DNA from: Candidatus Bathyarchaeota archaeon
GTDB taxonomy: Archaea; Thermoproteota; Bathyarchaeia; Bathyarchaeales; Bathyarchaeaceae
DNA: 64,000 nt
NCBI GenBank assembly: GCA_963697165.1
Contig: CAVOMX010000001.1
Location: 1 to 64,000 of the forward strand
Reading direction: 5' to 3'
A program made the translations under genes and the position numbers. Positions 1-46,982 of this stretch are shown piece after piece. A model generated the notes under the pieces. It made no database searches. It was not told the DNA's origin and was given only the letters and a program-made list of their open reading frames with translations. Each line of letters begins with the position of its first letter. The stretch's first letter is position 1.

Positions 1-73
1 ATTAGCAATAAGTGAAAAGTTCTATAACCGCTGAGTACAGAACCAGACTTCATAGGAAGGATTTTAATTTGAT

Positions 74-2816: not shown

Positions 2817-2983
2817 TCCTTTTTAATTATTATTTTTTCGACAAAGCCTAGTTTGTTGAAACTTGTCTTTAAAACAAAGTGTAGGTAAGCCACCAACCAC
2901 AAAATTTTTAGCTATTTTTACCAACTAAAGTCTATGGGGGGATATTTGCTATTTTACGAAAAGAAGATAATGTAATTGCTCTT

Positions 2984-3772: not shown

Positions 3773-3878
3773 CAGTATAGTTGATAACTAAGAATGGATG
3801 TCTTCTAAAAATCCCAATTTTTTCAGGCTTTCATAAATTAAATATTTTTTTACAAAAGAGTAGACTAAGGAAGTCTGA

Positions 3879-3913
3879 GTGCTAAAAAGAAGGGTTTGCT
3901 GAGGCTCTAGCAC
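3879..3913. repeat. Conserved short hairpin-like repeat, copy 2
   Basis: Similar to 74-106; closing stem gtgcta/tagcac. Confidence 0.6.
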
Positions 3914-4088
3914 AGTTGTTGATGAGTAAGGTCACATTCAACCTTTTTTCAAGGGGAAAGAATGTGTGCTCCTGTGCTTCCTTTTCAGCCCCTTCTGTCC
4001 TCTTGGTAGTTCCAAAAAAGAGGGAAAATTTTTTGTCGTATTGTCTGAATAAATTTGCACCATTCCAAAGCATTATTCAAGTCTTTTT

Positions 4089-4280
4089 CTATTGTTCCAA
4101 TCTTCTGTCTGCTGAATCGTGCTCACTTTCTATTTCGGAGACTTCTTTTCTGATGACAATTTTTGTTTCTTTCTCTGTAAAGCTCTCTTCTGGTCCGCAA
4201 TAGACGAGTTTAAAATCTGGAACCCTATGATGCCAAACCCCACTCTTACGTTTCCGACCCCCCATCCAAAAACCTCCCAA
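4089..4280 (-). CDS. Small hypothetical protein (possible element remnant)
   Basis: 63-aa ORF with a charged, plausible composition; no recognisable family. Confidence 0.3.
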   Translation of the reverse strand: MGGFWMGGRKRKSGVWHHRVPDFKLVYCGPEESFTEKETKIVIRKEVSEIESEHDSADRRLEQ

Positions 4281-4360
4281 AAAACCAAATCATGCTCATT
4301 ATTCTCCTTTCCACTTTAACCAATCAAACCTCCTTTCAATCCTCAAATTTCTAATCGGTT

Positions 4361-4391
4361 ACTCCCCACAAAAAAGGGGAGGGAAATTGGT
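4361..4391 (-). terminator. Pyrimidine/T-rich terminator-like 3' element after PQQ gene 2
   Basis: Minus strand accaatttccctccccttttttgtggggag after stop 4392-4394; matches 218-249. Confidence 0.6.
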
Positions 4392-7480: not shown

Positions 7481-7731
7481 TTGGATCTGCGATTACTTAG
7501 AAGAAGAACAGAGATGCTTGATGCTGTTTGTACTGGTCTTCATCCTTCTGCTGTGATTTTTCAGTTGGCTGAGAAGTATGGTGTTTCTGAGAAGGCTTTG
7601 TGGAGTGATTGGTTACGGAGGAAGAAGTGGGTTCCGTTTTTGTTGGAGTTGGAGAAGTTTAGTGATTTTTCGGGGATGGTTGTGGAGAGGTTGAACGGTG
7701 TTCAGAAGGCTGCTTGGAGCATCTACCTAAA
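7481..7731 (+). pseudogene. N-terminal part of an HTH-like hypothetical protein, apparently truncated and joined to an integrase remnant
   Basis: QLAEKYGVSEKALWSDW HTH-like motif; sequence switches into integrase coding at ctacctaaa (7723-7731). Confidence 0.5.
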
Positions 7732-8100
7732 ACCAGCGATTACATATTTAATCCCAACATTTTCACTATGAGAAAAGGCTTCCAGAAACAACGAAAAAGA
7801 AGTGTCAAGACTCTTCAGAATCCCAGATTGAAACAAATACATTTTCATACTTTACGACACTGGAAAGCAACAATGGAGTATCACAAAACCAAAGACATCT
7901 TACACGTTAAACGATTGCTAGGTCATAAAAAGATTGAAAACACCGAGATTTACACGCATCTTATCAATTTTGAAAGTGACGAGTGGAATGTAGCTACTGC
8001 TTCAACTTTGGTTGAAGAAACTAAACTGTTGGAGGCCGGATTTCAGTATGTGCGATATAGTGAAAAAGACGAATTGGCTATATATCGGAAGCGAAAGTAG
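7723..8100 (+). mobile_element. C-terminal fragment of a tyrosine recombinase/site-specific integrase
   Basis: FHTLRHW...LLGHKKIENTEIY retains HxxR, H and catalytic Y. The N-terminal part including the first catalytic Arg is missing. Ends 19 bp before a tRNA. Confidence 0.9.
8079..8085 (+). promoter_or_regulatory. Candidate TATA box for tRNA-Glu, inside the integrase 3' end
   Basis: TATATAT within codons GCT ATA TAT, about 35-40 nt upstream of the mature tRNA 5' end. Confidence 0.4.
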
Positions 8101-8119
8101 GTAGAGTAGTACTATTTGG

Positions 8120-8197
8120 GCTCCGGTAGTATAGTCCGGTTAAGTATGGCGGCCTCTCGAGTCGCCGACCCGGGTTCGAATCCCGGCCGGAGCACCA
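8120..8197 (+). tRNA. tRNA-Glu (anticodon CTC), intronless, CCA encoded
   Basis: Acceptor GCTCCGG/CCGGAGC, anticodon arm GCGGC-CT-CTC-GA-GTCGC, T arm CCGGG-TTCGAAT-CCCGG, terminal ACCA. Confidence 0.97.
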
Positions 8198-12107: not shown

Positions 12108-14789
12108 ATGGTTACAATAAATCTGGAAAAAATTTTTGAACCGGAAAGCATCGCTGTTATCGGAGCGAGCGACAAGGAAGGCACTGTTGGATATGCTTTA
12201 ATGAAGAACCTCACCGAAGGGGGATACGAAGGAAAAGTTTACCCAGTTAACATTCACAAAACACAAATTTTGGGTTTTAAAACATACCAAAACGTTGCTC
12301 AACTCCCAGAAACTGTTGACTTGGCAGTTATTGCTACGCCAGCTAAAACCGTTCCAGACATGGTGGATCAGTGTGGCAAAGCAGGAATCGTGGGAATAAT
12401 AATTATTTCAGCTGGGTTCAAAGAGGCAGGACCTGAAGGCAAAGAGTTAGAGAACAAAATTGTTGAAACTAAAAGAAAATATAACATGAGAATAGTTGGT
12501 CCAAACTGTTTAGGTGTTATTCGTCCAAGCATCAACCTTAATGCAACTTTTACAAACAAGCTTCCCAAGCAGGGAAACATAGCGTTTATTTCTCAGAGTG
12601 GAGCTTTAGGCTCAGCAATTCTGGATTGGGCAATTCACGAAAAGATTGGTTTTAGCAATTTTGTTTCCGTAGGCTCCATGATTGACGTTGACTTCGGAGA
12701 TTTGATAGACTACTTTGGCACTGATCCCAAAACCAGAAGCATATTAATGTACATTGAAGGAATCACCAACGCCAGAAAATTCATGAGCGCAGCAAGACAC
12801 TTTGCACGAACAAAGCCGATAATTGTTGTGAAGGCAGGAAAATTTGGCGAAACGGCCAAAGCAGTAGCATCTCACACGGGAGCAAAGGCAGGCGAAGATG
12901 TGGCGTATGGCGCAGCGTTTAAGCGTGTTGGAATAGTTCGCGTAGAAGAAATTGGAGACCTCTTCAACTGCGCAGAAGTTTTGGGAGTCCAACCATTGCC
13001 GAGTGGACCAAACCTAGCCATAATCACCAACGCTGGAGGTGCAGGAGTTATGGCTGCGGATGCGCTTATAGCAGGAGGAGGAAAGTTAGCGGAGTTAGAC
13101 CCAAAAACTGTCGAAAAACTCAACAAAGTTTTGCCTCCGCACTGGAGCAAAGCAAATCCAATAGACATTTTGGGAGACGCCAAAACTGACAGATACAAAA
13201 CAGCGATTACTGTATGTCTTGGCGACAAAAACATTGACGGCTTGTTGATAATTTATGCGCCTCAAGGTGTCGCGGATTCTGTTCAAATTGCAAAAAGCGT
13301 TAGCAAGCTTTGTGAAAAGAAAGATTTTGGTAAACCAATTTTGACGTCGTTTATGGGCTATGAAGAGGTAGAAGAAGCAAACAGGGTTCTTAACGAAAAC
13401 AACATTTCAACATATTCTACTCCAGAGCAGGCAATCAAAACATACCTGTACATGAACCAATACAAACGCAACCTCGAACTGCTTTACCAAACACCCGAAG
13501 AATTGCCAGTGGACAGTTCGCCTCCAAAACGTCCCATAACAGTAACAATCAGAGAAGCCGCAAAAGAAAACAGGGAAAACTTAACTGAAATAGAATCAAA
13601 AGGGATTCTGGAAAACTACAAAATTCCAGTCGTCAAAACGTTGACTGCTGAAACTGAAGATGAAACAGTTTTTGTAGCTGCACAGATAGGTTACCCGCTA
13701 GCTTTGAAGATTCTTTCGCCGCAGACTGTCCATAAATATGACGTTGAAGGAGTAGTAATTGACATCAAATCTGATGCTGAGCTTCGAGAAGCGTTTCGTA
13801 AAGTTATGCAGCAAACTAAAGAACAAAAGCCAGATGCACAAATTCTTGGAGTCACAATTCAGAGCATGATCAAAAAACAAGGCCACAAAATGAGGCTAGG
13901 AGCAAAAACTGATTCCCTTTTTGGTCCACTGATACTGTTTGGGATGGACGATGTTGGCATCGAAATTTTTGACGACATCGCGGTAGGTCTTCCACCATTG
14001 AATCAGGCATTGGCTAGAAGAATAATAGAAGAAACACGAGGCTACAAACTGTTAAAGGGCTACAAAAATGTGGCGCCAGCAAATCTTAAGCTGCTAGAAG
14101 AGATAATGGTGCGGTTGTCTCAGTTGCTTGTTGATTTTCCGCAAATAAAAGAAGTCGACATCAACCCACTGTTCATCAACGAAGAAGAGGTGTTAGCTCT
14201 TGATGCAAAAATAGTAATCGACAAGGAGCGGGTTTCAACAAAATTTGAGCCTCACGAACATTTGGTGATAAGCCCTTACCCAAAAAAGTATGAAACCCCG
14301 TGGAAACTGCGGGATGGCAGAAGCGTTCTGTTAAGACCAATAAAGCCTGAAGATGAACATTTGTGGCTTGAGATGTTCCAAAACTTTTCAGAACAGTCCA
14401 TACGCTACAGGTTTTTCCAGATCATCAAAGACACCCCGCATGAAGTTAGGGTTCGTTACTCCAACATCGACTATGACAGAGAAATAGGCATCGTGGCAGA
14501 ACTAAAAGAGGGACGACGCCAAATTTTGGGTGTTGTGAGGCTTATAATTGAGTCGGATGGAAAAACTGGTGAAATGGCGTTTATTGTTGCAGATCCTTGG
14601 CAGGGACTGGGGTTAGGGTCGAAGATGGTAGATTATATGATTGAAATCTGCAAAGACAAGGGACTAGAAACGGTTTACGCCTTCATACTGCCCGACAATC
14701 ACAGGGCAATTAGTCTTTTGAAAAAGATGGGATTCACCATCAAACATATACAAGACGTAGCAAAAGCTACTCTCAATCTGAAGGAATAA
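12108..14789 (+). CDS. Pat/PatZ-type fusion: NDP-forming acyl-CoA synthetase domains plus C-terminal GNAT acetyltransferase
   Basis: IAVIGAS, GPNCLG, SQSGA, SHTG, TNAGGAG, NPIDILG, ATP-grasp DINPL, then LRDGRSVLLRPIKPED...WQGLGLG GNAT. Confidence 0.92.
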   Translation: MVTINLEKIFEPESIAVIGASDKEGTVGYALMKNLTEGGYEGKVYPVNIHKTQILGFKTYQNVAQLPETVDLAVIATPAKTVPDMVDQCGKAGIVGIIIISAGFKEAGPEGKELENKIVETKRKYNMRIVGPNCLGVIRPSINLNATFTNKLPKQGNIAFISQSGALGSAILDWAIHEKIGFSNFVSVGSMIDVDFGDLIDYFGTDPKTRSILMYIEGITNARKFMSAARHFARTKPIIVVKAGKFGETAKAVASHTGAKAGEDVAYGAAFKRVGIVRVEEIGDLFNCAEVLGVQPLPSGPNLAIITNAGGAGVMAADALIAGGGKLAELDPKTVEKLNKVLPPHWSKANPIDILGDAKTDRYKTAITVCLGDKNIDGLLIIYAPQGVADSVQIAKSVSKLCEKKDFGKPILTSFMGYEEVEEANRVLNENNISTYSTPEQAIKTYLYMNQYKRNLELLYQTPEELPVDSSPPKRPITVTIREAAKENRENLTEIESKGILENYKIPVVKTLTAETEDETVFVAAQIGYPLALKILSPQTVHKYDVEGVVIDIKSDAELREAFRKVMQQTKEQKPDAQILGVTIQSMIKKQGHKMRLGAKTDSLFGPLILFGMDDVGIEIFDDIAVGLPPLNQALARRIIEETRGYKLLKGYKNVAPANLKLLEEIMVRLSQLLVDFPQIKEVDINPLFINEEEVLALDAKIVIDKERVSTKFEPHEHLVISPYPKKYETPWKLRDGRSVLLRPIKPEDEHLWLEMFQNFSEQSIRYRFFQIIKDTPHEVRVRYSNIDYDREIGIVAELKEGRRQILGVVRLIIESDGKTGEMAFIVADPWQGLGLGSKMVDYMIEICKDKGLETVYAFILPDNHRAISLLKKMGFTIKHIQDVAKATLNLKE

Positions 14790-22420: not shown

Positions 22421-23153
22421 CTACAAGAAACCTGTGGATTTTAGTTCATCAACAGTTACTTTTCCATTATGTAACACAGTGGCGACCAATGCACCAGAAA
22501 CCCCTAGGCTTCTTAGATCCTCCAGTTCGTAGAGGCTTTTTATTCCTCCGCCAACCAGCAAGTCAACTCCGGTCTGTTCAAGAATGGTTCTAATGAGACT
22601 CAAGTTGATTCCATGTTCAGTTCCCACACGGTCTAAATCCAAGAGAATAATCTGGCGAACACCAACGCCTGCAAGTTTTTTTCCAAACGAAACGGCTTCC
22701 ATTGAAGCGATAGCCTCTGAGTCACTAAGCAATTTTCCTTTTTTCTGGTCTATGCTTACTACAATCTTATCTTCGCCAAAGGTGCCTACGGCTTGGCTCA
22801 CAAAATCTAAACTTTTCAAAGTTTCAGAGCCTATCACAATCTTTGACACATTGGTCTTGAACACATTTTTCTGCTTTGGTGATGTCTGATATTCCGGCAT
22901 CGACCATCAAATCAAGACAGGTTGTTGTCATAATCTTGCTGTATACACTGAAATTAGCTGATTTGCCTAGTATTGCATCCAAGTCTGCCAGATACAAGCT
23001 GCTAAAGCCCAACGACTCAAAGGCGGCGGCAATTTCCAGCGGGTCAGTAGACTTGCATAGAAGGCTTTTTAATGGCTGGTAATGTCTTCTTTCGCCTCGT
23101 ATGCCATGAACTGCAATACCATTTAAAACGTCAATTACGGGAATAATTTTCAT
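22421..23153 (-). CDS. HisA/HisF-related TIM-barrel protein of C1-cofactor gene clusters (one frameshift)
   Basis: MKIIPVIDVLNG, LYLADLDAI, MVDAG, IVIGSETL, LDLDRVGT, GGGI, GALVATVLH; frame change near 22870. Confidence 0.8.
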
Positions 23154-23196: not shown

Positions 23197-24417
23197 TTGA
23201 ATCTTTTGATATTTGAGTATGTTTCCGGAGGCGGATACTCCAATCAGAAACTTTCAAGCAGCATCCTCAGTGAAGCATATGGCATGTTACGAAGCTTAAT
23301 CTCAGACTGCAAAGCCGCAGGAGATAACGTTACAACCTTGATGGATTCAAGACTAATGGCGTTTAATCCGCCAAACGAAGCAGACAAAATAGTCCTTGTA
23401 TCTTCTACATACGAAGTTGATGAGAAACTAAAGGAGATTTCAAGTTTGGTTGACGCCGTTTACGTTATCGCCCCAGAGTCAGGTCAAGTGCTAGAAAAAC
23501 TGCTGGAAACCATTGAAGCTTCTGGCGGAACATCACTCAACTGCGAAATCGACGCCATAAAACGGGTTTCAAACAAGATTACAGCTCACAGGAGATTAGA
23601 GCAAACTGGCTTGAAGGTTCCAGAAACAGTTCTGTTAGACATTCACACAAAAACAGAAAAGATTAGACATTTAGTCAAAGAGTTGGGATACCCTCTAGTC
23701 TTTAAGCCATTAGATGGTTCAAGCTGTGGCGGCTTGAGCCTTGTAAAAGATGAAAACAAAATAGCTGGCGCAGTCAAGAAAATATCGCAAGAGTCGATGA
23801 GCAGCCAGTTTATTGCTCAAAAACTAATCAAGGGAAAGGCTGCCAGCGCATGTGTAATCTCGACAGGAAACAAAACCGTGGCTGTCACATTGAACAGTCA
23901 ACGGGTTACTTTGGCGCCACCCGATAAGGAATCCACATATGATGGCGGAGAAGTTCCATTCAATCACCACCTAGAAAAAGAGGCAATGAAGGCTGCAGAA
24001 ATGGCTGTTGAAGCGGTGAGTGGACTGAAGGGTTATGTTGGTGTAGACATGATACTAACAGAGGAGAAACCTGTCGTGATTGAAGTAAACCCGCGGCTTA
24101 CAACATCATATATTGGCTTGAAGAGAATCGCAAACTTCAACACAGCAGAAGCAATAGCCGATGCGGTAATTAGGCGAAAGCTGCCAACAAACTTGCAAAC
24201 TAAAGGTTACACGTTCTTCTCCAAAGTAGAGGTTCCCTCATGCCTTCATGTTGTCGCTGAAACATACAAACTAAAAGATGTTGTGTCCCCCCCATTTCCG
24301 ACCGAAGAAAAGACAGCTTATGCTCTAATTGCCTCAGTCTCAAGCAGTCCTACGGGTGCTCAATCAGCTTTTTATCGAACAAAAAAACGTCTTCTATCGC
24401 TCTACAGAGGTGATTGA
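23197..24417 (+). CDS. mfnD: ATP-grasp protein, tyramine--L-glutamate ligase-like (methanofuran biosynthesis)
   Basis: LIFEYVSGGG, VIAPES, VFKPLDG, GYVGVD, IEVNPRLTTSY, plus mfn context. Confidence 0.8.
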   Translation: MNLLIFEYVSGGGYSNQKLSSSILSEAYGMLRSLISDCKAAGDNVTTLMDSRLMAFNPPNEADKIVLVSSTYEVDEKLKEISSLVDAVYVIAPESGQVLEKLLETIEASGGTSLNCEIDAIKRVSNKITAHRRLEQTGLKVPETVLLDIHTKTEKIRHLVKELGYPLVFKPLDGSSCGGLSLVKDENKIAGAVKKISQESMSSQFIAQKLIKGKAASACVISTGNKTVAVTLNSQRVTLAPPDKESTYDGGEVPFNHHLEKEAMKAAEMAVEAVSGLKGYVGVDMILTEEKPVVIEVNPRLTTSYIGLKRIANFNTAEAIADAVIRRKLPTNLQTKGYTFFSKVEVPSCLHVVAETYKLKDVVSPPFPTEEKTAYALIASVSSSPTGAQSAFYRTKKRLLSLYRGD

Positions 24418-24419
24418 GT

Positions 24420-25498
24420 TTGGTAAACGGTTCTTGGCTTAGACATAGGAGGAGCAAACACCAAAGCAACTTTGCTAATTACCCAAAACGCTACAACCAA
24501 AAAACTTAGAACGTTACTAGAGTATTTTCCGATATGGAAAGATGGAAAGAATCAGCTTCCAAAAGTTCTAGAGAAACTGAAGAAAAAACTTACGAACTCG
24601 ACTGTGCTGGATGGAGTTGGGGTTACGATAACTGCCGAGCTGTCAGATGCTTACATGACAAAAAAAGAGGGAATACATCACGTTTTAGATTGTGTATGCC
24701 AAGTTTTTGGTGAGGTGCCACTTTTTGTTCTTGACGTGGAAGCTAACCTATTATCAGTTGAAGAAGCACACAGAGAACCGATTAGGGTAGCATCTGCAAA
24801 CTGGGCTGCAACAGGATGGATAACAAAGCAATCAATCAAAAACTGTATTGTTGTAGATGTCGGAAGCACCACAACAAGCATCATCCCAATCGTTAACGGA
24901 AAGATAGCTGCCAAGGGCAGAACAGACCTTGAGAAGCTTCAGAATGGAGAACTTGTTTACTCTGGATCTTTGCGAACAAACGTTGCCACAATCGTCAACT
25001 TCATCCCAGTTCGAGATATGATGACACGGGTTTCCTCAGAGTTGTTCTCGCAGTCAGGCGATGTCCACCTGCTTCTAGGCAACATAAACGAAGAAGAGTA
25101 TACTTCTGAGACCTGTGATGATCGCGGAAAAACAAGAAGGGAAGCAGCAGCTAGGTTAGCGCGAGTAGTCTGCACCGACACAGACATGCTAACAGAACAG
25201 GAGATAATGGATGTGGCAAAATTTGTTTACGCCAAGCAAGTTGAGCAGATTGCGTGTGGCTTAAAGCAGGTAAGTGAAAGAATTAAGCCTGAACTCAGAA
25301 AAAAGACGGCTGTGGTTACGGGGCTTGGAAGAAACTTTCTTGCAAGAAAAGCTGCAGAAAAGGTGGGATTTGAGGATATTGTTGATATGCAGGAGTCTGC
25401 TGGGTGTTGACGCGGCTGTTGTGTCGCCTTCGGTTGGCGTGGCGTTTATGGTCGCAGGTATTTTGGAGGGAAAAACAGTAAAATGGAAGCGGTCCTGA
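24420..25498 (+). CDS. mfnF: Hydantoinase-A-family methanofuran precursor synthase (frameshifts near both ends)
   Basis: LGLDIGGANTK, TAELSD, ASANW, DVGSTTTSIIP, RTDLEKL, GELVYSG, ARLARVVC. Confidence 0.85.
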
Positions 25499-26149
25499 AG
25501 GTTGGCGGAAGCTTAGCAGAAGAGCCCACCAGCTTAGTTAGCTTATGTAGAATGTTAAGCGTTCTAGCAAAAGCTCACAGGATAGTTGTTGTGCCTGGTG
25601 GCGGAGAATTCGCCGACACAGTAAGAAGACTACGACAGAACGTATGGTTTCTCAAAGAGAGTTGCCCATCAAATGGCAATACTAGCAATGGACCAATACG
25701 GACTACTTCTTTCTGATTTTGCCCCAGACTCTTACGTCTCTTACAATCAAGAAGAAATCAGCAGCTCAGTCAAGGGGAAGTTGCCGATTTTTTTGCCATC
25801 AAAGCACATGTTTCATGAAGACCCTCTGGAACACTCATGGAATGTAACCTCGGACACTATAGCCGCTCATATTGCCAGCGTATTACATGCAGAAAAACTA
25901 ATTCTAGTAACTGACGTGGACGGAATATTCTCAAAGGACCCCAAACAAAACTGGGATGCCAAATTTATTAAAGAATTGTCTGCAAAAGAACTGCTTGGCT
26001 CGAACATGAGAACAAGCGTCGACAAGACATTACCAAAGATGCTTCTGCAGACAAAACTAGATTGCTACGTCGTTAACGGCAGACAACCAGAAAGAATTGG
26101 ACAGCTTCTGGAAAACAAAAAGACCGTTTGCACACACATCACAGTTTAA
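25483..26149 (+). CDS. mfnE: Amino-acid-kinase-family [5-(aminomethyl)furan-3-yl]methyl phosphate kinase (frameshifted)
   Basis: VLKVGGSL, VVPGGGEFAD, MAILAMDQYG, HSWNVTSD, TDVDG. Confidence 0.85.
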
Positions 26150-26159
26150 CAGAGCTAAT

Positions 26160-26877
26160 TCACAATTTGGCGAGCTCATTAACAAACGCCATAACTTTCT
26201 CTTTTTCAAGTTTGCCAGCTAATCGGTCTTTTTTGGTGCAAACTGCTCCTCTAACCCCAAGGATATCTGCACCTAAACTGTATATTCTTGGAATGTCTGG
26301 GGTATCTAAAGAGCCTGCGAGGGCAGCCAGCAGATTACAGTCGTGAGCTTGAGTAACAAAATCTCTCAATTGCTCATCTGTGAGGAAACTGAACAAGTTA
26401 TCTTTCATATTCTTATTTTTTACATCAATCAGCACGCCATCAGCTTCCGCCTTATGGGCGATCATGGGAAGTTCCAGAGGACTTACGCATCCAACAGTAT
26501 CTAAAGTCTGCATATCCAGAAGCTATAGCTTTCAAGCCACTGTCATACTCTTTCACCGCTTTAACAACTTCAGTCATAAGCTTCGTTGCTTCTTCAGAGG
26601 TTTTCACGCCAAAAAGCCCAACTTTAACATAGTCAACTCCGGAAACGGCGGCGCCCAAAGCTGCAAGAGAAGCGGTTCCAGGCAGATTAGGTAAATCTCC
26701 TATTGTTGCGCTTACTTCAAGATTTTTTGGTGCAACCTCCCTAACTTGCCGTATTACTCGAGGAAAATTGGCTCCCAAAGAGCCTTCTTTTGGGTTTTTA
26801 ACGTCCAGTATATTGGCGCCTCCTCTGATGCTCTCCAAGGCTTCTGTTTTGTCTACGACACTAACTAGAAGTTTCAA
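26160..26877 (-). CDS. mfnB: (5-formylfuran-3-yl)methyl phosphate synthase (one frameshift)
   Basis: MKLLVSV, DVKNPKEGSLGANFP, SATIGD, DYVKVG, ALAGSL, GVRGAVC. Confidence 0.9.
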
Positions 26878-37569: not shown

Positions 37570-38397
37570 TTATTTGGCGTAGGCCTCGACGAGGTCACGT
37601 GCAGTGATGATTCCCACCAGTTCACCATCTTGGGTGATAGGAAGTCGCTTTATGTGGTTCGTCGACATGGTGGCAGCTGCCCTGTGTATACTTGTTCCTG
37701 AGGGGATAGTAATAAGTGGCGATGACGATGCTTTTCCCACTTTGGTTATTAATGATTCTCCTTTAGCCAGGAAGTTTGTGAGAAGGTCACGTTCAGTGAA
37801 TATACTCATATGGGGTTTGTCTTTGCTGGTGATTATGAGGCTGCCAATCCTTTTCTCACCCATCACCTTTGCTATAGTGGCTATGGGGGTTTTCTCGTCA
37901 GCGGTTATGACCTGCTCAGTCATAAAGTCATCAACCTTAAGCTGTGTTTCGGATACATCAGGTAGACTCCGAATCAGGTCTGACGCAGTTATTATTCCAA
38001 CAAGATCTCCGCAGCTAAAGACGGCAAGCCTCCCTTTCGTTTTGGTCATCATCTGTGCTGCTTCTTTTATCTCGGCAACTGAGCATATTTTGGTGAGAGG
38101 GTATGACATAACTTCCTCAACCATCATCTCACTTGGTGTCCTTCCAAGTGCTAGAACATTGCTCAGCAAGTCTCTTTCGGTGACTATTCCCACTGGTGTA
38201 TCATAATTCTTGGCGATCAAGCTTCCTATGTGCCTTTCACCCATGATCTTAGCAACATCCTCCATTGTAGCATAGATTGTAGTGGTGACAACATCTCGGC
38301 TCATAATAGCCTCTACCAGTCGATGTTTCTTATACTCATTATATGCTCGATCAATGACACTTGGGAACTCTTTTGTCAAATCTTTGATGTTTTTCAC
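37570..38397 (-). CDS. Four-CBS-domain protein, paralogue 1
   Basis: Repeated GIVTERDL / GIITASDL / IFTERDL / GIITARDL; GTG start after a GGGGGA RBS. Confidence 0.9.
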   Translation of the reverse strand: MKNIKDLTKEFPSVIDRAYNEYKKHRLVEAIMSRDVVTTTIYATMEDVAKIMGERHIGSLIAKNYDTPVGIVTERDLLSNVLALGRTPSEMMVEEVMSYPLTKICSVAEIKEAAQMMTKTKGRLAVFSCGDLVGIITASDLIRSLPDVSETQLKVDDFMTEQVITADEKTPIATIAKVMGEKRIGSLIITSKDKPHMSIFTERDLLTNFLAKGESLITKVGKASSSPLITIPSGTSIHRAAATMSTNHIKRLPITQDGELVGIITARDLVEAYAK

Positions 38398-38898
38398 AAA
38401 ATCCCCCCAAATGTATATGTGAATAGTTAGATTAATCATTTTGGTTAATTCTTGCACTATTTTAATAAGATGAGGTACCCCCTCTGGATTTGTAATCTTT
38501 TCAAAAATTATTTCTAGTAGATTATGAAATCTTATCCCAGATGCTTTAAGTAACTACTTTTAATGTCCCTCAGTATTCTTTTACAAAATCTAATCAATAG
38601 ACTTTTGAAAAACTCTTTCACTACTCTGGAGAATTTCTAAGCAATGCGCACGAAGTTGATCTAATGGATAGAGATCATTTAGTTAACAGGAAGAAGAAAA
38701 CGAAAGGTAGGACAAAAAATTTCAGGCTCTTACATTCATGCGGTAAATCATGTGAATTGGGGAACCAATGTATCTAGTAAAATCCTAGCGACATTCCCCT
38801 CATTTTTATTCTAAAAATGTTTTCACTAATAAATTCAATCTATAAATTTCCAAATAGTATAAATTTATGGCAAATAGTATTGTAATGGGGAATCTTCT

Positions 38899-39489: not shown

Positions 39490-40362
39490 ATGAAGACTTT
39501 TACAGATTTAGGTACCCGCGATATTGTACATAAACACAATAACTGCAATATTACTCAGCACCGAGAGACAGAAGAGATTATGATCGTTAATGTTGTTACA
39601 ATAACTCCTGAGACTACACTATATGAGGCTGCCAAAATAATGGGCGAAAAACACATTGGAAGTTTGATAGTAATGAAGTATAACACAGCAGTGGGCATAA
39701 TAACTGAAAGAGATATGCTGCGCGAAGTTGTGGATAAAGGAATTGCTTTGGAGAAAGATTGGTTAGTTGGTGGAGTGAGTATAAAAGAAGTAAAAGTTGA
39801 GAAAATCATGTCCTATCCTCTTATATCGATATCCCTAAAATCAAAATTAAAAGAAGCTGCTCAAATCATGATTGAAAAGAAAATTCGGCGACTGGCAGTC
39901 ATTGAATCGGGAAAAGTTGTGGGCATTATAACTGCCTCAGATCTTATTCGACGTCTCCTGGAGAAACCCAAAACGATGCAAGTATGGTTTGAAGTTGACT
40001 ACTTTATGAGTAAAAGTGTCATAACTGCTGATGAGGAAACATCTGTAGAAGACGTAGCAAACATAATGGGTAAGAACAGTATTGGTAGTGTCATAATTAC
40101 TCGTAATGGAGAGCCTATGGGAATCTTCACTGAAAGGGATCTGCTTACCAAGTTCTTGGCAAAAGATCGGTCGTTGAAGATAGAAGTAGGAAAAGTGTGC
40201 TCATCACCTCTAATTACTGTACCTATGAGGACCAGCGTCCAAGATGTTGCTGAAATAATGATTTCAAAACATATTAAGAGGTTGCCAGTTACCAAAGATT
40301 CCAAATTAGTGGGTGTAATTTCAGCGCGTGACTTGGTTGAGGCGTATGCTCGAATAAAATAA
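39490..40362 (+). CDS. Four-CBS-domain protein, paralogue 2
   Basis: Same CBS pattern; strongly similar to 37570-38397. Confidence 0.9.
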   Translation: MKTFTDLGTRDIVHKHNNCNITQHRETEEIMIVNVVTITPETTLYEAAKIMGEKHIGSLIVMKYNTAVGIITERDMLREVVDKGIALEKDWLVGGVSIKEVKVEKIMSYPLISISLKSKLKEAAQIMIEKKIRRLAVIESGKVVGIITASDLIRRLLEKPKTMQVWFEVDYFMSKSVITADEETSVEDVANIMGKNSIGSVIITRNGEPMGIFTERDLLTKFLAKDRSLKIEVGKVCSSPLITVPMRTSVQDVAEIMISKHIKRLPVTKDSKLVGVISARDLVEAYARIK

Positions 40363-40438: not shown

Positions 40439-41392
40439 TTATTTTCTATATTTGCTTAGAATTTTTAAGAACTCTTCTGCCGTGGTAGATGGTTTTTGCA
40501 TATCTAACACGATTTTTTCCTTTTTTCTTTTTTGCACAGCTAATGTTCTTTTATTGGTTGCTTTAATTGATAATTCCTTTTTCAAAGTATTGAACGAAGT
40601 CAATTTCCTTAAAGCTGTAAGCCAAGCTGCTGCTTCGATATCCTCGTGAAATATCCAATCCCTGCTCACGCATATGGCTTCTTTTGGGCATACTTTTTGG
40701 CATGCTGAACAAAAGATACAGAAATCAGGATAAAGAACAGCTTTTTCGTTTTCCAATCGAATAGCACTGGTAGGGCATATATCCATACATACTACACAAT
40801 CTTTGGGACACAGAGTTTTATTCAATTCAACCTTGCCTTGAAACGGTTTTTTTACATGTAATGCGCCAAAAGGGCACATCAATTCACACCGTTTGCAGTA
40901 AATACATTTATTTTTATCAATCTCCACTTCAAGAATTTCAGGTGTTTCCCCATTTTCTGAGATTTTGGTTGTGACTTTAATGGCTTCTGTTGGGCACTCT
41001 TTTTGACAGACTAGCTCACATGTTGAATCGCACTTCTCTTTGAATAAACGTATTTCTTTAATTAACCTTGGAAAGGCTTCATTTTTTACAATTGTAGAAA
41101 TCGAATCTCCGTCAATTTCCATGCTTAAGGCATTCAGAGGACATATAACTGCACATTCTCCACATAGATTACAAGACTTTTTATCAAAATCGATTGACGG
41201 CTTTTTTACTAAATGCCCTTCAACAATCACTTCAGGAATTTCCTGAATAGCTTGCTTTGGACAAATTAAGGAACACAGACCACAACCATTACACAAGTCC
41301 TTGTTCAATGAAAGGCGATAATTTCGGGTAAGAAACTTTCTCTCAAGAGTAATATTGTCCCTATTTTGAAAACTGCGTATTTTTCCCCTCAA
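40439..41392 (-). CDS. Polyferredoxin (FwdF/FmdF-like)
   Basis: Six CxxCxxCxxxCP-type 4Fe-4S motifs. Confidence 0.85.
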   Translation of the reverse strand: MRGKIRSFQNRDNITLERKFLTRNYRLSLNKDLCNGCGLCSLICPKQAIQEIPEVIVEGHLVKKPSIDFDKKSCNLCGECAVICPLNALSMEIDGDSISTIVKNEAFPRLIKEIRLFKEKCDSTCELVCQKECPTEAIKVTTKISENGETPEILEVEIDKNKCIYCKRCELMCPFGALHVKKPFQGKVELNKTLCPKDCVVCMDICPTSAIRLENEKAVLYPDFCIFCSACQKVCPKEAICVSRDWIFHEDIEAAAWLTALRKLTSFNTLKKELSIKATNKRTLAVQKRKKEKIVLDMQKPSTTAEEFLKILSKYRK

Positions 41393-41407
41393 TTTAATTC
41401 ACCAAAA

Positions 41408-43885
41408 TTAATTCAAAACACTCTTTGATGTCAATTCCGTATTTTTAATAGTGGTTACTTCTCGGCAATTTTTTTGAGTCAACTTTTCAATAGTTTTTTC
41501 AATTTCATCTTTTGTAACCGAATCCACAATTTTTTGAATTTCATTAATTGTTGAAGCAAACTTCTGTCCTTCAGCTGCACTTATCCAGGCTAGATGAAGC
41601 CGATTTTTGTCCAAACCTAATCTTTCCATTTTTTTCCACAATTTTTCGACCCGCCTCTTAGTCTGGTAATTTGCATTTATGTAATGGCAATCATTCAAAT
41701 GACAACCAGCTACCAATACAGTTGCAGCTCCTCTAGCAAAAGCTCTTTCAACAAACTTTGTAGATATCCTTCCTGAACACATAGTTCGGATTATTCGAAC
41801 ACTAGGAGGATATTGCATTCTGCTAACCCCCGCGAAGTCAGCTCCTGCATAGGAACACCAGTTGCAACAAAATGCTATTATCTTCTTTTCGGCATTTTCC
41901 TCAGTTGCAGCATCTATTTGCACGTTTAATTGATGATCCGTAAAGTGTCTCATTTCAATGGCACCAAATGGGCACTCAGCACCACAGGTTCCACATCCAG
42001 AACAAGCAGCTTCGGCAACGGTAGATTCTTTGTTAACCTTGTCGACTGAAATTGCATTATATGGGCACACCCTTTCACACAAACCACATCCGGTACATTT
42101 TTCCGGAGACATAATGGGAGTGATAGCTTCAACAGTAACACTACCTTTAGCCATTAGAATACTTGCCCGAGCTGCAGCAGCACTCGCTTGAGTTACGCTA
42201 TCTTTGATGTCTTTAGGAGCTTCTGCACAACCAGCCAAAAAGACCCCCCCTGTTGGGGTGTCTACAGGCCTAAGTTTTGGATGAGCTTCCATGAAGAATC
42301 CATCAGAAGTCTTGGATAATCTTAAAAGTCGTTGAACTTCACTGCTATCATCTCTAGGTCTAAGACCAACAGAAAGAACGACCATCTCAGCGTCGATTTT
42401 ATATTTTCTATTTTCAAGAGTGTTTTCTCCTTTAAGCAGTAAGTTATTTGTTTTTTTATCCTCAATAATCTCGGCTGGCAGTCCACGAATAAAGATAGCC
42501 CCTACTTCTTTTGCTCTTCGATAAAGGTCCTCAAACCCTTTTCCAAATGAACGTATATCGATGTAAAAAACATAGATTCTGACCTCTGGCCAATGCTCCT
42601 TAATGAGTAAGGCATCTTTTATAGTGTTCATACAACACACATTGCTGCAGTAAGGGTTACCATCTTTTTCAGATCGAGAACCGATGCATTGAATAAATGC
42701 AACGGATTTTGGAATGTTCAAATCACTAGGTCTTACCAAACGACCGCCTGTAGGTCCTCCGGCATTAATTAAACGCTCAAACTCCATCGAAGTTACTATG
42801 TTTGGAAACCGCAAGTAACCATATTTCGTTATAGACACCGGATCAAAAACATCCAAACCAGTTGCTACAATAATTGTTCCTACATCCAGTTCAATTTCTT
42901 CACCTTTATCCGTGAAATCTATTGCTGCAGGGCCACATACTTCTTTACATTTTGCACAAGTATTATCTTCAAGACCTATGCATGATTTCTCGTCAATAAG
43001 ATATTTAGCTGGAACGCTTTGAGCAAAAGGAATGTAAATAGATTTTCGCCAAGTTAAACCTGTTTCAAATTCATTTGGGACTTCGATTGGACATACATTA
43101 GCGCAATCACCACAAGCAGTACAGTCTTTTGTAACATATCTTGGTTTTTTCTTAACTTTGACTTTGAAGTTTCCAATGTAACCAGCAACTTCTGTAACCT
43201 CACTATTTGCCAACAATTCAATTTTAGGGTGTTTGCCTACATCAGACATCTTTGGTGCAAGAATACAAATGGAACAATCCATAGTGGGGAATGTTTTATC
43301 AATCTGAGCCATTTTCCCTCCGATACTAGGGCTCTTCTCTACAAGGTAAACTTGATATCCGGTGTCAGCCAGATCAAGAGCTGCCTGAATACCAGCAACA
43401 CCTCCACCAATAACCAACGCTTTTTTTGTAACTGGAACAACAGCTTCTTCTTGAGGTTCCAAAAAAGTAACCCTTGCCACTGCCATCCGAACTAAATCCT
43501 TAGCTTTTTCTGTTGCTTTTTCAGGCTCGTAAAGATGCACCCAACTACAATGTTCCCTTATGTTTGCCATTTCAAACAAGTACTTGTTTAGTCCAGCTTC
43601 TTCGCAGGTCCTTCTAAAAGTCGGTTCATGAAGTCGAGGAGTACAAGACGCAACAACAACTCTATTCAGATTTTGTTCGATAATATCTTTCTTAATTGTT
43701 TCTTGTCCAGGGTCAGAACATGTGTACAAATTATGTTTCGCCAATTTGACCTGAGGAAGAGTAGCAGCATATTTTGCTACTGCCTCACAATCTACAGACC
43801 CTGCAATATTTTTTCCACAATGGCAAACATATACTCCTATACGAATTTCTTCATCTGGTTTAGATCTGAATTCTAAGTATTCCAT
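41408..43885 (-). CDS. hdrA: Heterodisulfide reductase subunit A fused to an MvhD-like 2Fe-2S domain
   Basis: GVYVCHCG, ANIREHCSWVH, GGGVAG, DKTFPTMDCSIC, QCIGSR, CSNVCCM, HPKLRP, then AFCCNWCSYAGAD...CSGR...GCHLNDCHY. Confidence 0.95.
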   Translation of the reverse strand: MEYLEFRSKPDEEIRIGVYVCHCGKNIAGSVDCEAVAKYAATLPQVKLAKHNLYTCSDPGQETIKKDIIEQNLNRVVVASCTPRLHEPTFRRTCEEAGLNKYLFEMANIREHCSWVHLYEPEKATEKAKDLVRMAVARVTFLEPQEEAVVPVTKKALVIGGGVAGIQAALDLADTGYQVYLVEKSPSIGGKMAQIDKTFPTMDCSICILAPKMSDVGKHPKIELLANSEVTEVAGYIGNFKVKVKKKPRYVTKDCTACGDCANVCPIEVPNEFETGLTWRKSIYIPFAQSVPAKYLIDEKSCIGLEDNTCAKCKEVCGPAAIDFTDKGEEIELDVGTIIVATGLDVFDPVSITKYGYLRFPNIVTSMEFERLINAGGPTGGRLVRPSDLNIPKSVAFIQCIGSRSEKDGNPYCSNVCCMNTIKDALLIKEHWPEVRIYVFYIDIRSFGKGFEDLYRRAKEVGAIFIRGLPAEIIEDKKTNNLLLKGENTLENRKYKIDAEMVVLSVGLRPRDDSSEVQRLLRLSKTSDGFFMEAHPKLRPVDTPTGGVFLAGCAEAPKDIKDSVTQASAAAARASILMAKGSVTVEAITPIMSPEKCTGCGLCERVCPYNAISVDKVNKESTVAEAACSGCGTCGAECPFGAIEMRHFTDHQLNVQIDAATEENAEKKIIAFCCNWCSYAGADFAGVSRMQYPPSVRIIRTMCSGRISTKFVERAFARGAATVLVAGCHLNDCHYINANYQTKRRVEKLWKKMERLGLDKNRLHLAWISAAEGQKFASTINEIQKIVDSVTKDEIEKTIEKLTQKNCREVTTIKNTELTSKSVLN

Positions 43886-45357
43886 ACTCTCACTTCCTCA
43901 GAATTTTTGTCTGATTTTTCAGGTTTATTTCTTAAATAACTGTCAATGGATTTTGCAGCTTGTTTTCCAGCTGCGATAGCCTCCATAATTGATGCTGACC
44001 CAGATATTGCGTCTCCACCAGCGAAAATACCACATGAACTTGTCTTTAATGACAATGGATCCACTGATATTGTACTTTTTTCACTAATTTCAACTGTTTT
44101 CGGAAGAAAGACCGTATTTGGAGATTGACCTATTGCAATTATTATTGTTTCAGCTTCTATTACAAATTCAGAATCTTTAATTGGAATTGGTCGCTTCCTA
44201 CCAGTATCATCGATTTCACCCAAATCCATTCTCACACATTCAATACCAGTTACCTTACCTTTTTCACCTATAATCCGATTTGGAGCTACTAGAAATTCAA
44301 TTTTAATGCCAGCTTCTTTTGCCTCTTTGATTTCCCATAGACCTGCAGGCATATCATCCTCAGATCTTCGATATAAAATAATGACATCTTTTGCTCCAAG
44401 TCTCAAAGCGGTTATAGCAGAGTCAATCGCAACATTACCTCCACCAATTACTGCAACTTTATCAGTAACTTTTGCTTTTTTGGAATTCGCTTTTTCTAGA
44501 AAATCAAGAGCATAAACAATTCCATCCAGTTTATCACCCTGAATTTTGAGAATACGCTCATGATGACTACCTGTGGCTATAAATACTGCATCAAATTCTT
44601 TGACAAGCTTTTTGAAATCAAGATTTTTGCCAATTACCATATTTGTTTTAAATTCAATTCCATAATCTTTTATCATATCAATATCAAAATTAATTGATTT
44701 CCTAGGAAGACGATATTCTGGAATACATCTTCTCAACATTCCACCTGGCGATGCCGAAGCCTCAAAAACTGTAACCGAGTACCCTTTTATAGCTAGATCT
44801 TTGGCTGCTGAAAGACCGGCTGGACCGGATCCGATTATGGCAACTTTATTTTGGTTTGCGGTAGCAAAGTATCGTTTCTTCTTTTTTACAAATTCGTCTG
44901 TGAGAGAAGCATATTGAATAGCATTTTTTACAATTTGTTTATTTTTAATAACCCTTTCTGGATGAAAACAAACATGACATGTTGAAGCCAAAAGAGGAAT
45001 TTTTTCTTCGAGTATGCTCAAAGCTTTGTAGAATCCTTCAAGATAACCGACTTCAACAGCTAACCTTCTTACGGTTTGAAAAATTTCGGGAAGGTTGAGG
45101 TTTTGAGGGCATCGTCTATAACATCGATAACACCATGCACAAAGCCATAATTCTGGTGATTTCAGGATTTTTTTATCGCTTATAGAAAGGTTATGAAGTA
45201 ATACTCTCGGATTATAATATTCTGGAACTAATTCTGCAACTGGACAACTGGCAGTGCAAATACCGCACTCAAAACATAACTTCAGTTTTTCAAAATCTAA
45301 GATATTATCAAGAGCTTTGTCCAGGTTTATTTCTTCACTCTTTTTTAATATGCTCAA
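43873..45357 (-). CDS. HdrC-like 2x[4Fe-4S] domain fused to a GltD/NfnB-like FAD/NADPH oxidoreductase
   Basis: CFECGICTASCP and LWLCAWCYRCYRRCP; GSGPAG, IPEYRLP, GGGNVAID...YRRS, FAGGD. Confidence 0.88.
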   Translation of the reverse strand: MSILKKSEEINLDKALDNILDFEKLKLCFECGICTASCPVAELVPEYYNPRVLLHNLSISDKKILKSPELWLCAWCYRCYRRCPQNLNLPEIFQTVRRLAVEVGYLEGFYKALSILEEKIPLLASTCHVCFHPERVIKNKQIVKNAIQYASLTDEFVKKKKRYFATANQNKVAIIGSGPAGLSAAKDLAIKGYSVTVFEASASPGGMLRRCIPEYRLPRKSINFDIDMIKDYGIEFKTNMVIGKNLDFKKLVKEFDAVFIATGSHHERILKIQGDKLDGIVYALDFLEKANSKKAKVTDKVAVIGGGNVAIDSAITALRLGAKDVIILYRRSEDDMPAGLWEIKEAKEAGIKIEFLVAPNRIIGEKGKVTGIECVRMDLGEIDDTGRKRPIPIKDSEFVIEAETIIIAIGQSPNTVFLPKTVEISEKSTISVDPLSLKTSSCGIFAGGDAISGSASIMEAIAAGKQAAKSIDSYLRNKPEKSDKNSEEVRVWNT

Positions 45358-46237
45358 TCAACTCCCAATATTTTGCTAAACTTTCCAAAAGTCCATTATT
45401 CCTTGAAACAAAATTGTCATGGTGAGTTAGCATGTATTCTTCAACAAGTCGAATAGCTTCTTCTAACCATTCTAACGTTTTTTCAATCTTTTCTTTACTT
45501 CCAGTTGGAACCATTGTAGAAAGGTGCTTTTTTACAAACATGCCATAGACGAGAATTTCTATTGGATTGGTTTCAGCGAATGCATCAAAGAGAAGGTTTA
45601 ATGATTTTTTTATGGCTTTGTTTTGGTTAACTTCCTGAATTAAACCATTAACCTCTTTCTCTGTTTGGTTTTCCGTTTTTTTCTGTTGTTTATTATCACT
45701 CTGGAGTTTTTTGGTTTTATTGACGGTATTTTCTGATAGCCCAAAAGTTTCTTTGATAAGTATTTTTTCTGTAGCTTTCAGAATGTTCTTATCTAGTTCT
45801 TTCCTTGTTACCAAGCTTAATGCTTCTTCTGGGCACCATTCGATACATTGGGGTTCGCCGTCACAAAGATCACAAATTAATACTGTTTCTCTTTCTGGAT
45901 GCAAAGAAATTGCACCGTGAGGACAAACTTCCATACATACTCCACAACAATCGCATTGATTTTCATCTACAATTATTACTCCTGTTTTTTCAGATTGAAC
46001 AAGACATTTTTGAGGACAAGCAATAACACACGGCGCGTTTTTGCATAATCTACAGGTCATAGCCAAGTTAACAATTCTATACATTCGAAGAATCTTTATT
46101 CTGGAACAACGTGAATTATATTGATTTTCGCGCTTAATTGCACAAATAAGTTCGCAGGTTCCACATCCGGTGCATTTTTCTAGATCAGCAGCGATAAATT
46201 TTTTCTCTGAAATAGAAGTTTGATTCAATTGTTGCAT
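45335..46237 (-). CDS. 4x[4Fe-4S] HydN/DmsB-like electron-transfer protein with a C-terminal extension
   Basis: CTGCGTCELIC, CRLCKNAPCVIACP, CDCCGVCMEVCP, CDLCDGEPQCIEWCP. Confidence 0.88.
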   Translation of the reverse strand: MQQLNQTSISEKKFIAADLEKCTGCGTCELICAIKRENQYNSRCSRIKILRMYRIVNLAMTCRLCKNAPCVIACPQKCLVQSEKTGVIIVDENQCDCCGVCMEVCPHGAISLHPERETVLICDLCDGEPQCIEWCPEEALSLVTRKELDKNILKATEKILIKETFGLSENTVNKTKKLQSDNKQQKKTENQTEKEVNGLIQEVNQNKAIKKSLNLLFDAFAETNPIEILVYGMFVKKHLSTMVPTGSKEKIEKTLEWLEEAIRLVEEYMLTHHDNFVSRNNGLLESLAKYWELIEHIKKE

Positions 46238-46982
46238 TTCTTTGTTACCCTCTAAAAAGCATCTAAATTTCCGTAGTGGCTGGCCGAGATCTTTTTTGGG
46301 ATTTATTTACAGAAAGATTGACTTTCACAATGTTTTTGTGGATTTCTTTCTCGTTTGCTAATTTTAATCTCAAATATGGACAAAAGTTAAGGTGATCGGG
46401 AAAAACGTGATGACTAGAACCAAAGGGTTTTTTCAAAAGATTCATGCTTTTCACTTCAATCTAACGTTTAGTATACGTTATGCATCAAGGTAAACCTTGA
46501 TATCAAATTTTTAGAATAATTGGTTCTCTAGTTACATTTAATGTTACTTTAATCAATGGAATTCAATCATTATTTTTTAAAAAAAATATTGGTCACTTTA
46601 ATTGTAACTTGAATCTAAATCTAAGGGATAAAATACGCAAAATATTTCTTTTTAATTTTTAAAATTCTTAGTGGTGTTCCCTGCTGGTTTGGTAATTTAC
46701 GGTGCGCGGCTTTATTTTGATCCACCCAAAATCATCTAGGTAAAAACCAACCATTTAGGCGGGGAAACGACTTTCCCAAATAAACCTATTCGCAGGTGAA
46801 ATGGAGCTATATGCACAAGAGTATGTTAACGGTTGGGAAATCTTGGTTAGTGGTGTAACCCAAACACAAAGCTAATTCACACTAAAGTGTTCGAACCACC
46901 TCTCTTATTTGTGTGCTCCTTGTAAGCATACAAAGAATTTTATGTCCGTAACCGATTATTCTTATTTTGGGGGGTTGATGAT

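Follow-up and report, generated by a model that had tools for sequence, protein, structure and literature searches.

The first 64,000 nucleotides (nt) of contig CAVOMX010000001.1 (assembly GCA_963697165.1, forward strand; hereafter the window), from a Candidatus Bathyarchaeota archaeon, contain a four-gene minus-strand operon, A-B-C-D, that includes genes related to heterodisulfide reductase (Hdr) and contains no hdrB. Our favoured reading, to which we assign a probability of about 0.55 on the basis of sequence comparison and structural modelling, is that this operon encodes an HdrB-independent module in which HdrA, coupled to nicotinamide adenine dinucleotide phosphate (NADP(H)), would bifurcate or confurcate electrons and feed ferredoxin-type partners. 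The conserved core of the system is B-C. Gene B encodes a flavoprotein with an HdrC-type N-terminal domain and gene C an HdrA-MvhD fusion, and the two are flanked by genes for the ferredoxin-type proteins A and D. The host genome is a bin of 1.99 Mb in 25 contigs that is 81% complete, and the start of each open reading frame (ORF) was taken as the first ATG, GTG or TTG.

Gene B as a predicted HdrC-NfnB hybrid

An earlier reading of the window, made from the sequence only, had described the product of gene B as an HdrC-like domain fused to a GltD/NfnB-like module, and our searches bore this out. Residues 25-113 matched the HdrC family TIGR03290 (3e-20) and the solved HdrC chain 5odc_C (3.7e-17), and all eight cysteines of the two cluster motifs were invariant in an alignment of 27 homologues. 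The domain is shorter than HdrC. B scored 72.7 bits against a cut-off of 160 for the full protein (TIGR03290/NF041779) and covered positions 2-88 of the 144 in the profile, leaving out the C-terminal part of HdrC.

Because an ordinary NfnB or GltD protein also has an N-terminal helical domain with two clusters and of similar length, we examined whether such a domain had been misread as HdrC. PF14691, the usual N-terminal domain of NfnB and GltD, did not match B at E<=0.01; Pfam gave Fer4_8 instead, and PF14691 was present in one of the 120 listed homologues of B. Residues 1-165 of B matched the HdrC domain encoded in the same genome at 2e-20 and the canonical NfnB of that genome at 0.052. When a profile of the domain built from 27 homologues was compared with the PDB, the significant matches were to HdrC chains only (9.5e-24 to 2.9e-17), and no NfnB, GltD or DPD chain matched at E<=0.01. 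Similarly, a fold search with a model of the domain (predicted local distance difference test score (pLDDT) of 83.5) returned HdrC at ranks 1-7, followed by SdhB-type domains, with NfnB at rank 49 (E of 4.3). Together these four results ruled out that B is an ordinary NfnB or GltD with its normal two-cluster domain.

Residues ~79-489 of B matched the GltD/NfnB families (PRK12771, 5.7e-103), and residues 166-480 matched Pyr_redox_2 (1e-35). The scores for the GltD/NfnB families (TIGR01316, PRK12771) were below the curated cut-offs (319 bits versus 471.75 and 345.4 versus 516). The closest solved relatives of B from about residue 166 onward, where the flavin adenine dinucleotide (FAD) and NADPH domains lie, were 9bov_A (5.5e-88), 4ylf_B (6.3e-81) and 5jca_L (7e-78). 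Its GGGNVA and YRRS motifs follow the GxGxxA/YRR pattern and were invariant or nearly so in the 27 homologues; NfnB of Thermotoga maritima (4ylf_B) has GAGNTA and YRRT where B has these motifs. An AlphaFold2 model of the whole protein had a pLDDT of 86.4, and its best fold matches were NfnI/NfnB-like chains (5jca_L, 1.8e-40, TM-score 0.67). From these comparisons of sequence and predicted structure we conclude that B combines a two-cluster domain of the HdrC type with an FAD/NADPH module of the NfnB/GltD type. Its N-terminal domain is shared, at similar length, by 729 proteins (90% clustering) that bear generic names only, such as 'FAD-dependent oxidoreductase' and 'glutamate synthase beta-like'.

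The nature of the flavin module raises an alternative, namely that bifurcation takes place at the NfnB-type flavin of B, as in NfnSL. One electron would pass via the HdrC-like clusters to HdrA and the other to a [2Fe-2S] cluster, possibly with MvhD standing in for NfnS, giving either an Nfn-like enzyme on an HdrA scaffold or an enzyme with two bifurcating flavins. The FAD/NADPH domains of B are indeed nearest, also in fold, to NfnB-like modules of proven bifurcating enzymes (the three solved chains named above), whereas the usual N-terminal domain of NfnB is replaced in B and no NfnA/NfnS-like gene adjoins it, the NfnA gene of the genome lying beside the canonical NfnB gene on contig C22. We consider this alternative very improbable. 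Since the genome has this separate canonical NfnA/NfnB pair, B is a paralogue distinct from the housekeeping Nfn. Within 1316-4788 of the region read there (L075, G000:C22:65500-73000), directly upstream of the pair, is a gene for a 338-amino-acid (aa) protein of ferredoxin domains plus an MvhD-like domain that resembles the C-terminal third of HdrA2.

Gene C and its predicted docking with B

Gene C had been read as an HdrA-MvhD fusion, and the profile searches agreed. C scored 1262 bits against NF040770 (cut-off 1100), which places it in the HdrA2 type, and its MvhD/FlpD domain (PF02662) was found at residues 669-787 (1.1e-48). The protein aligned end to end with solved HdrA (5odc_A, 1.6e-252; residues 12-660 against 2-649). 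Across 26 homologues C was 70-82% identical, and neither its cluster cysteines nor its GGGVAG motif for FAD varied. In the classification of PMC12054007, HdrA-MvhD fusions of this class are named 'type Ia'.

We modelled a complex of C (residues 1-800) with the N-terminal part of B (residues 1-170) using a separate alignment for each protein, in three runs and with three controls. The three runs gave ipSAE values of 0.69, 0.70 and 0.72, whereas the best of the three controls gave 0.00. As a reference, 116 of 157 solved complexes attained the docking mark, as did 2 of 215 mismatched pairs. Contacts agreed by 100% among the three runs, and the pLDDT of the partner was at least 69. The modelled interface places residues 27-37, 41-52 and 82-86 of B against residues 354, 400, 404-408, 442-443, 468-472 and 485-495 of C, such that the first cluster motif of B and the end of the second face the conserved C400/C413/C417/C418 region of HdrA. 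We take this cluster of HdrA to be the one that faces HdrC in the 5ODC work.

Distribution of the B-C pair and its neighbours

Comparison of 62 related loci, 56 of them with titles beginning Bathyarchae, gave 57 loci with a full-length B, three in which B was cut by a contig end and one with Ns inside the pair. C directly followed B in 56 of the 57 full-length-B loci (49 with a full C and seven with C running off the contig end), and the gap between the genes ranged from -71 to +17 nt. In the other full-length-B locus (L011), B is at 835-2334 on a contig of a single-cell genome, with a major facilitator superfamily transporter gene and unknown genes downstream. Two candidates were set aside. 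L070 had looked like a 'mini' form of the module, and its stretch contains Ns, that is, an assembly gap; L071, considered as a further example of B-C, is instead a 906-aa gene of the kind in which GltD/NfnB is inserted into HdrA.

The genes that follow the pair fall into a few types. In 41 of the 49 loci with a complete pair, C was followed by four genes for the delta, alpha, beta and gamma subunits of a 2-oxoacid:ferredoxin oxidoreductase (KorDABG-like), and a divergent gene for 2,4-diaminopentanoate dehydrogenase usually lay upstream. Six loci (L012-L017) resemble the window in having a D-like polyferredoxin gene directly after C. Two loci titled Thermococci and Hadarchaeota (L036 and L061) have the order mtd-ftr-B-C-fwdDB-fwdA, and in L067 a truncated B lies beside fwdDB, a small D-like ferredoxin gene and fwdA. 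No hdrB was found between or directly after B and C in any of the 49 loci with a complete pair, where Kor, fwd or polyferredoxin genes followed instead. The sequence-only reading had linked the operon to formylmethanofuran dehydrogenase (Fwd). L036, L061 and L067 favour such a link, as does the fwdDBAC cluster of the host itself, which has no polyferredoxin gene nearby; the predominance of the 2-oxoacid:ferredoxin oxidoreductase among the relatives does not.

Among 251 evenly sampled Bathyarchaeia genomes, 28 matched the N-terminal domain of B at E<=1e-28. Seventeen of these, including the host, had frames of at least 476 aa, one had a 243-aa frame near a contig end, and ten had frames of 162-206 aa. 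Full-length B was present in two of the six other sampled genomes of the host genus. The ten short frames, all from one Bathyarchaeia family (G080, G135, G156, G162, G177, G192, G201, G216, G222 and G237), are free-standing ORFs that are 45-51% identical to the HdrC-like domain of B, and from their sequences they may represent the docking domain in unfused form.

A proposed NADP(H)-coupled mechanism

In solved complexes HdrA has an MvhD port for mid-potential input and an HdrC port, leading on to HdrB, for high-potential output. PMC13518236 describes HdrA's inserted ferredoxin domain as the low-potential output; in the solved methanogen complexes covered there, polyferredoxins bind this domain and feed Fwd, and FwdF, FmdF or VhuB wires it straight to formylmethanofuran dehydrogenase. 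We propose that B and C would be the core of a soluble HdrA complex without HdrB, in which the methanogen branch from HdrA through HdrC and HdrB to the heterodisulfide is replaced by one that runs through the HdrC-type domain and the FAD of the NfnB-like module to NADP(H). The HdrC-like domain of B would dock at the HdrC site of HdrA, its two [4Fe-4S] clusters joining the HdrA flavin to the flavin of B. The HdrA flavin would then bifurcate or confurcate between this NADP(H) branch (about -320 mV) and one of low potential, which would leave via the inserted ferredoxin domain into polyferredoxin D. A third, mid-potential partner would enter at the fused MvhD domain, and might be the MvhAG hydrogenase of the genome or ferredoxin A, which could act here or on the side of B. 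Because the B-C pairs of relatives precede genes for 2-oxoacid:ferredoxin oxidoreductase or Fwd, the general role of the module would be coupling between the NADP(H) pool and chemistry at the level of ferredoxin. That B-C bifurcates, and in which direction, we infer from sequence.

The potential of NADP+ is -320 mV. For the heterodisulfide of coenzymes M and B (CoM-S-S-CoB), PMC13518236 gives an E0' of -281 mV. As the two values are close, exchanging the heterodisulfide for NADP+ would be an energetically modest change.

Several points weigh against our reading. The host genome encodes HdrB on contig C12, where mvhG, mvhA, hdrA (in several frames) and a joined protein made up of the HdrA C terminus, MvhD and HdrC are followed by hdrB (343.1 bits, cut-off 345.15); both CCG-domain matches of the genome lie in a single 373-aa frame there. 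Full-length HdrB-like matches of at least 280 bits were also found in 14 of the 16 other B-bearing genomes, the remaining two having one fragmented HdrB copy and, in a genome that is 78% complete, a 29-bit match only. The description 'HdrB-less' in the sequence-only reading thus holds for the operon and fails for the genome, in which hdrB lies beside a second hdrA-mvhD-hdrC set and mvhAG, and we dropped the absence of HdrB from the genome as a line of support. Because hdrB is present in the host and in most B-bearing genomes, the case for HdrB independence rests on the docking model and the logic of the fusion. The model supports binding of the HdrC-like domain of B to HdrA; since HdrA-HdrC complexes have been solved, its score shows likeness, perhaps recall by the modelling program, and is no proof that B and C bind. 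Moreover, the operon encodes no mid-potential donor, and little driving force would be left for bifurcation if NADP+ is the 'high-potential' acceptor. The B-C module is also patchy and accessory, and A and D are confined to one small clade, A being present in four of the seven polyferredoxin-type loci. Finally, L011, the sole full-length-B locus without C, contains the closest homologue of B (81% identical) and has no HdrA within 4.9 kb.

These points bear most directly on the possibility that the enzyme depends on HdrB after all. C would then pair with HdrB, or HdrB and HdrC, from contig C12, as HdrA2 of Methanosarcina acetivorans does with HdrB2C2, and B would be an NADPH input that replaces hydrogenase, Fdh or F420H2, with bifurcation to a disulfide and to ferredoxin or polyferredoxin. 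The NADH-dependent FlxABCD-HdrABC system provides a comparable input scheme. The hdrB2C2 genes of M. acetivorans presumably lie apart from hdrA2. Both an HdrA2B2C2 complex and an hdrA2-polyferredoxin operon are described for that organism (PMC5296606), and a published Bathy-6 model groups an MvhD/HdrA fusion that adjoins 'MvhB' with HdrCB genes from elsewhere into a single system (PMC11697101). The sole hdrB of our genome, on the other hand, adjoins hdrA-mvhD-hdrC genes of its own, B is missing the portion with which HdrC reaches towards HdrB, and the HdrC-like domain of B was itself modelled on HdrA against the conserved cluster motif. We assume that the modelled site is the one used by HdrC; if so, a second HdrC would be excluded. 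Taking both sides into account, HdrB dependence seems rather improbable to us.

Alternatively, the four proteins might not bifurcate at all and might form a plain electron wire between reduced ferredoxin-type carriers and NADP+, a ferredoxin:NADP+ oxidoreductase dedicated to particular enzymes, in which the HdrA flavin would serve only to convert between one- and two-electron transfer. Such a wire would suit the neighbours, all of which are ferredoxin-dependent enzymes exchanging electrons with pyridine nucleotide, as well as the absence from the operon of a module for a third substrate; A and B also resemble the domain order of Escherichia coli AegA/YgfT, HydN-like and then GltD-like. It is difficult to reconcile with gene C, in which nothing that marks a bifurcating HdrA has been lost, the inserted ferredoxin and MvhD domains included, at 70-82% identity across the class, which is costly for a simple wire, and with a genome that already has NfnAB. 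We therefore judge a simple wire to be improbable as well.

HdrA is listed in PMC12318220 as one of four known scaffolds for flavin-based electron bifurcation. A bolder form of our favoured reading, in which an HdrB-independent B-C couples NADP(H) to ferredoxin, is that B-C(-D) would be a fifth kind of bifurcating enzyme, a hybrid of HdrA and NfnB in which two flavins, each potentially bifurcating, stand in series. Non-methanogenic archaea would use NADPH, and with it H2 or some other donor of mid-potential at MvhD, to charge the polyferredoxin to about -500 mV, driving CO2 reduction by Fwd or reductive 2-oxoacid synthesis without the heterodisulfide. We regard this as unlikely; if true, it would free the Hdr machinery from its tie to methanogenesis.

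Bathyarchaeia rank among the most abundant archaea of anoxic sediments, and the way in which they keep ferredoxin, NAD(P)H and the Wood-Ljungdahl branch that uses tetrahydromethanopterin (H4MPT) in balance without methanogenesis is unsettled. If our reading is true, B-C would be a concrete enzyme for this balance, plugging into Fwd, 2-oxoacid oxidoreductases or a polyferredoxin, and the HdrC docking site on HdrA would be reusable by other redox modules.

The flanking ferredoxins and other redox genes of the genome

A had been described as a HydN/DmsB-like protein with four [4Fe-4S] clusters, which agrees with the four cysteine motifs in its translation (C22/25/28/32, C62/65/70/74, C95/98/101/105 and C122/125/131/135) and with its match to Fer4_11 (8.3e-9; 36 bits, cut-off 26.2). 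Matches to NCBIfam equivalogs were all under their cut-offs (PadI N terminus, 2.6e-24; AegA N terminus, 6.6e-21; HydN, 1.7e-13). For residues ~150-300, profile scans gave no family match and an atlas search no usable match. An A homologue upstream of B was confined to L013-L015 and the window.

D contains six CP-terminated cysteine motifs, as expected of the six-cluster FwdF-like polyferredoxin that had been proposed, and its best family was FwdF (NF042909, 1.5e-52). The best solved chains were FwdF 5t5i_F (1.8e-42) and FmdF 7bkb_K (7.8e-37), with MvhB lower (1.1e-22). D is not a full FwdF, in that its score of 178.8 bits is under the cut-off of 375, it has six motifs versus eight clusters, and the fwd genes of the host are on another contig. 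These genes form a fwdD-B-A-C-mch cluster at the start of contig C17, and no polyferredoxin gene was found beside it in the 9 kb read.

The sequence-only reading had named a genome search for hdrB, fwd and aor as a check; besides the hdrB and fwd genes already described, this returned two AOR genes, both split. McrA, CofH and FdhA were not found in searches of the genome, which at 81% completeness is no proof of their absence. There are two FrhB-like genes. One lies beside Nuo/Fpo membrane subunits; the other follows nuoE and nuoF and is fused to a HoxU-like domain. The latter belongs to a row of three (L077, G000:C17:46500-53500, 45-3894), in which genes like nuoE and nuoF (the second of 644 aa) precede the 477-aa fusion, made up of a HoxU/NuoG N-terminal domain and FrhB; from its sequence the row may encode a soluble oxidoreductase linking NAD(H) and F420.

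Operon layout and neighbouring genes

The four genes are intact minus-strand ORFs whose boundaries agree with those of the sequence-only reading, and they are as tightly coupled as it had stated: the overlap is 23 nt between A and B and 13 nt between B and C, and C and D are 15 nt apart. Positions of the genes and domains are given in Table 1. As had also been noted, the window contains no hdrB, and none of its 59 other ORFs of at least 90 aa matched a hydrogenase or Fdh catalytic subunit at E<=1e-10. The suggestion that the operon fits the mfn genes in the window did not hold up, as the mfn-like genes are at 23197-26877, about 14 kb away and unlinked to the operon.

Table 1. Genes of the operon and domains of their products, with positions in the window
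Feature	Position	Strand	Description
Gene A	45335..46237	-	300 aa; HydN/DmsB-type ferredoxin; four Cys motifs and a C-terminal part of ~150 aa
Gene B	43873..45357	-	494 aa; NfnB/GltD-like FAD/NADPH flavoprotein with HdrC-type N-terminal domain
B, residues 25-113	45019..45285	-	HdrC-like alpha-helical ferredoxin domain; two CxxCxxCxxxC motifs, C28/31/34/38 and C73/76/79/83
B, residues 166-480	43918..44862	-	FAD domain (GSGPAG 176-181) and NADPH domain (GGGNVA 305-310, YRRS 329-332)
Gene C	41408..43885	-	825 aa; HdrA-MvhD fusion, HdrA2 type
C, residues 12-660	41906..43852	-	Complete HdrA; N-terminal cluster domain, FAD domain (thioredoxin-reductase-like), inserted ferredoxin and C-terminal ferredoxin domains
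C, residues 666-795	41501..41890	-	MvhD ([2Fe-2S]) domain; 5odc_D 6.8e-46 (against its residues 5-134)
Gene D	40439..41392	-	317 aa; FwdF-like polyferredoxin; six Cys motifs

In metatranscriptome run X20, two short contigs matched C (41567-41717 and 42040-42268) and one matched 46361-46513, within the 745-nt spacer that precedes A. Being contigs of an RNA library, they are no proof of transcription or co-transcription. A second RNA run had no contig matching the operon. The match in the spacer is to a 151-nt contig of an estuary metatranscriptome library, with two other letters and a 2-nt gap, and there was no Rfam match at this position. An Rfam scan of the whole window returned one tRNA and nothing else.

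Just downstream of D, two paralogous proteins with four CBS domains each (37570-38457 and 39490-40362), one encoded on each strand, flank a 99-aa ORF; judged by their sequences, the paired CBS proteins might be adenine-nucleotide sensors for the operon. Elsewhere in the window, a 128-aa fragment of a tyrosine recombinase of the XerA/integron type (7714-8194) adjoins the tRNA gene (8120-8194), with ORFs without a family match upstream (2984-7109), and together these may be what is left of an integrated element. The gene at 12108-14789 encodes an 893-aa ADP-forming acetate-CoA ligase that has fused alpha and beta parts and ends in a Pat-type acetyltransferase-like domain (residues 731-876).

Many genes of the bin are split into adjacent or overlapping ORFs, among them those for MfnB and a HisA/F-related protein (26160-26877 and 22421-23153 in the window), MvhA and the second HdrA (2535-3989 and 4164-6806 of L010, G000:C12) and both AOR proteins (G000:C22:73793-74396 and C11:169118-169704). 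The split in mvhA is a one-base frame change that ends in TAG, with no selenocysteine codon. Because several other genes are broken in the same way, the splits look like indel errors of assembly or sequencing; A-D are intact.

Comparison with known systems

To our knowledge, the characterised forms of HdrA all end in HdrB and a disulfide. No account of an HdrC-GltD/NfnB protein, or of such a protein paired with HdrA-MvhD, turned up in a literature search that for the Bathyarchaeia papers covered the main texts. The Bathy-6 model in PMC11697101 places 'MvhD/hdrA' beside 'MvhB', and its account of these genes does not mention a GltD-like neighbour. Since B is annotated only generically, reconstructions such as this one overlook it or fold C into Mvh-Hdr.

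The system most closely comparable in its parts is HdrABC-MvhAGD of methanogens (5ODC). C matches its HdrA and MvhD, and the N-terminal domain of B is HdrC-like in sequence and fold. In the window, however, HdrA and MvhD are fused, the operon has neither HdrB nor hydrogenase, and the HdrC-like domain is shortened and runs into an FAD/NADPH module. HdrA2B2C2 of M. acetivorans, as described in PMC5296606, shares the HdrA-MvhD fusion of the HdrA2 type and the polyferredoxin gene directly after it. In that enzyme CoM-S-S-CoB is reduced by means of HdrB2C2, with F420H2 or ferredoxin, whereas the gene translationally coupled upstream here is for an NfnB-like NADPH protein that has a domain of the HdrC type, in an incomplete genome without a detected McrA.

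The FAD and NADPH domains of B and their motifs are like those of NfnSL/NfnAB and of the NfnB-like modules of NfnABC/StnABC. B differs in its HdrC-type N-terminal domain and in having HdrA, and not NfnA/S, as its neighbour. Likeness to the Hdr-Fwd/Fmd super-assemblies with FwdF, FmdF or VhuB (7BKB, 9SFI; treated in PMC13518236) lies in the FwdF/FmdF-like D and in the two loci, L036 and L061, where B-C is followed by fwdDB-fwdA. In contrast to the polyferredoxins of those assemblies, D has six motifs versus eight clusters, is under the FwdF cut-off and is not beside the fwd genes of its host, which is apparently no methanogen.

Type III HdrA, that is, the HdrA-NfnB fusions reported for ANME-1 and Bathyarchaeota (PMC12054007, PMC9012536), likewise combines HdrA with a GltD/NfnB-type pyridine-nucleotide module, and the authors of that work also propose NAD(P)H as the substrate. 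In the fusions as they describe them GltD is inserted into the ferredoxin domain of HdrA, whereas here it is part of a separate subunit. Because the NADPH module of this subunit carries an HdrC-type docking domain, B would sit on the HdrC-side branch of HdrA.

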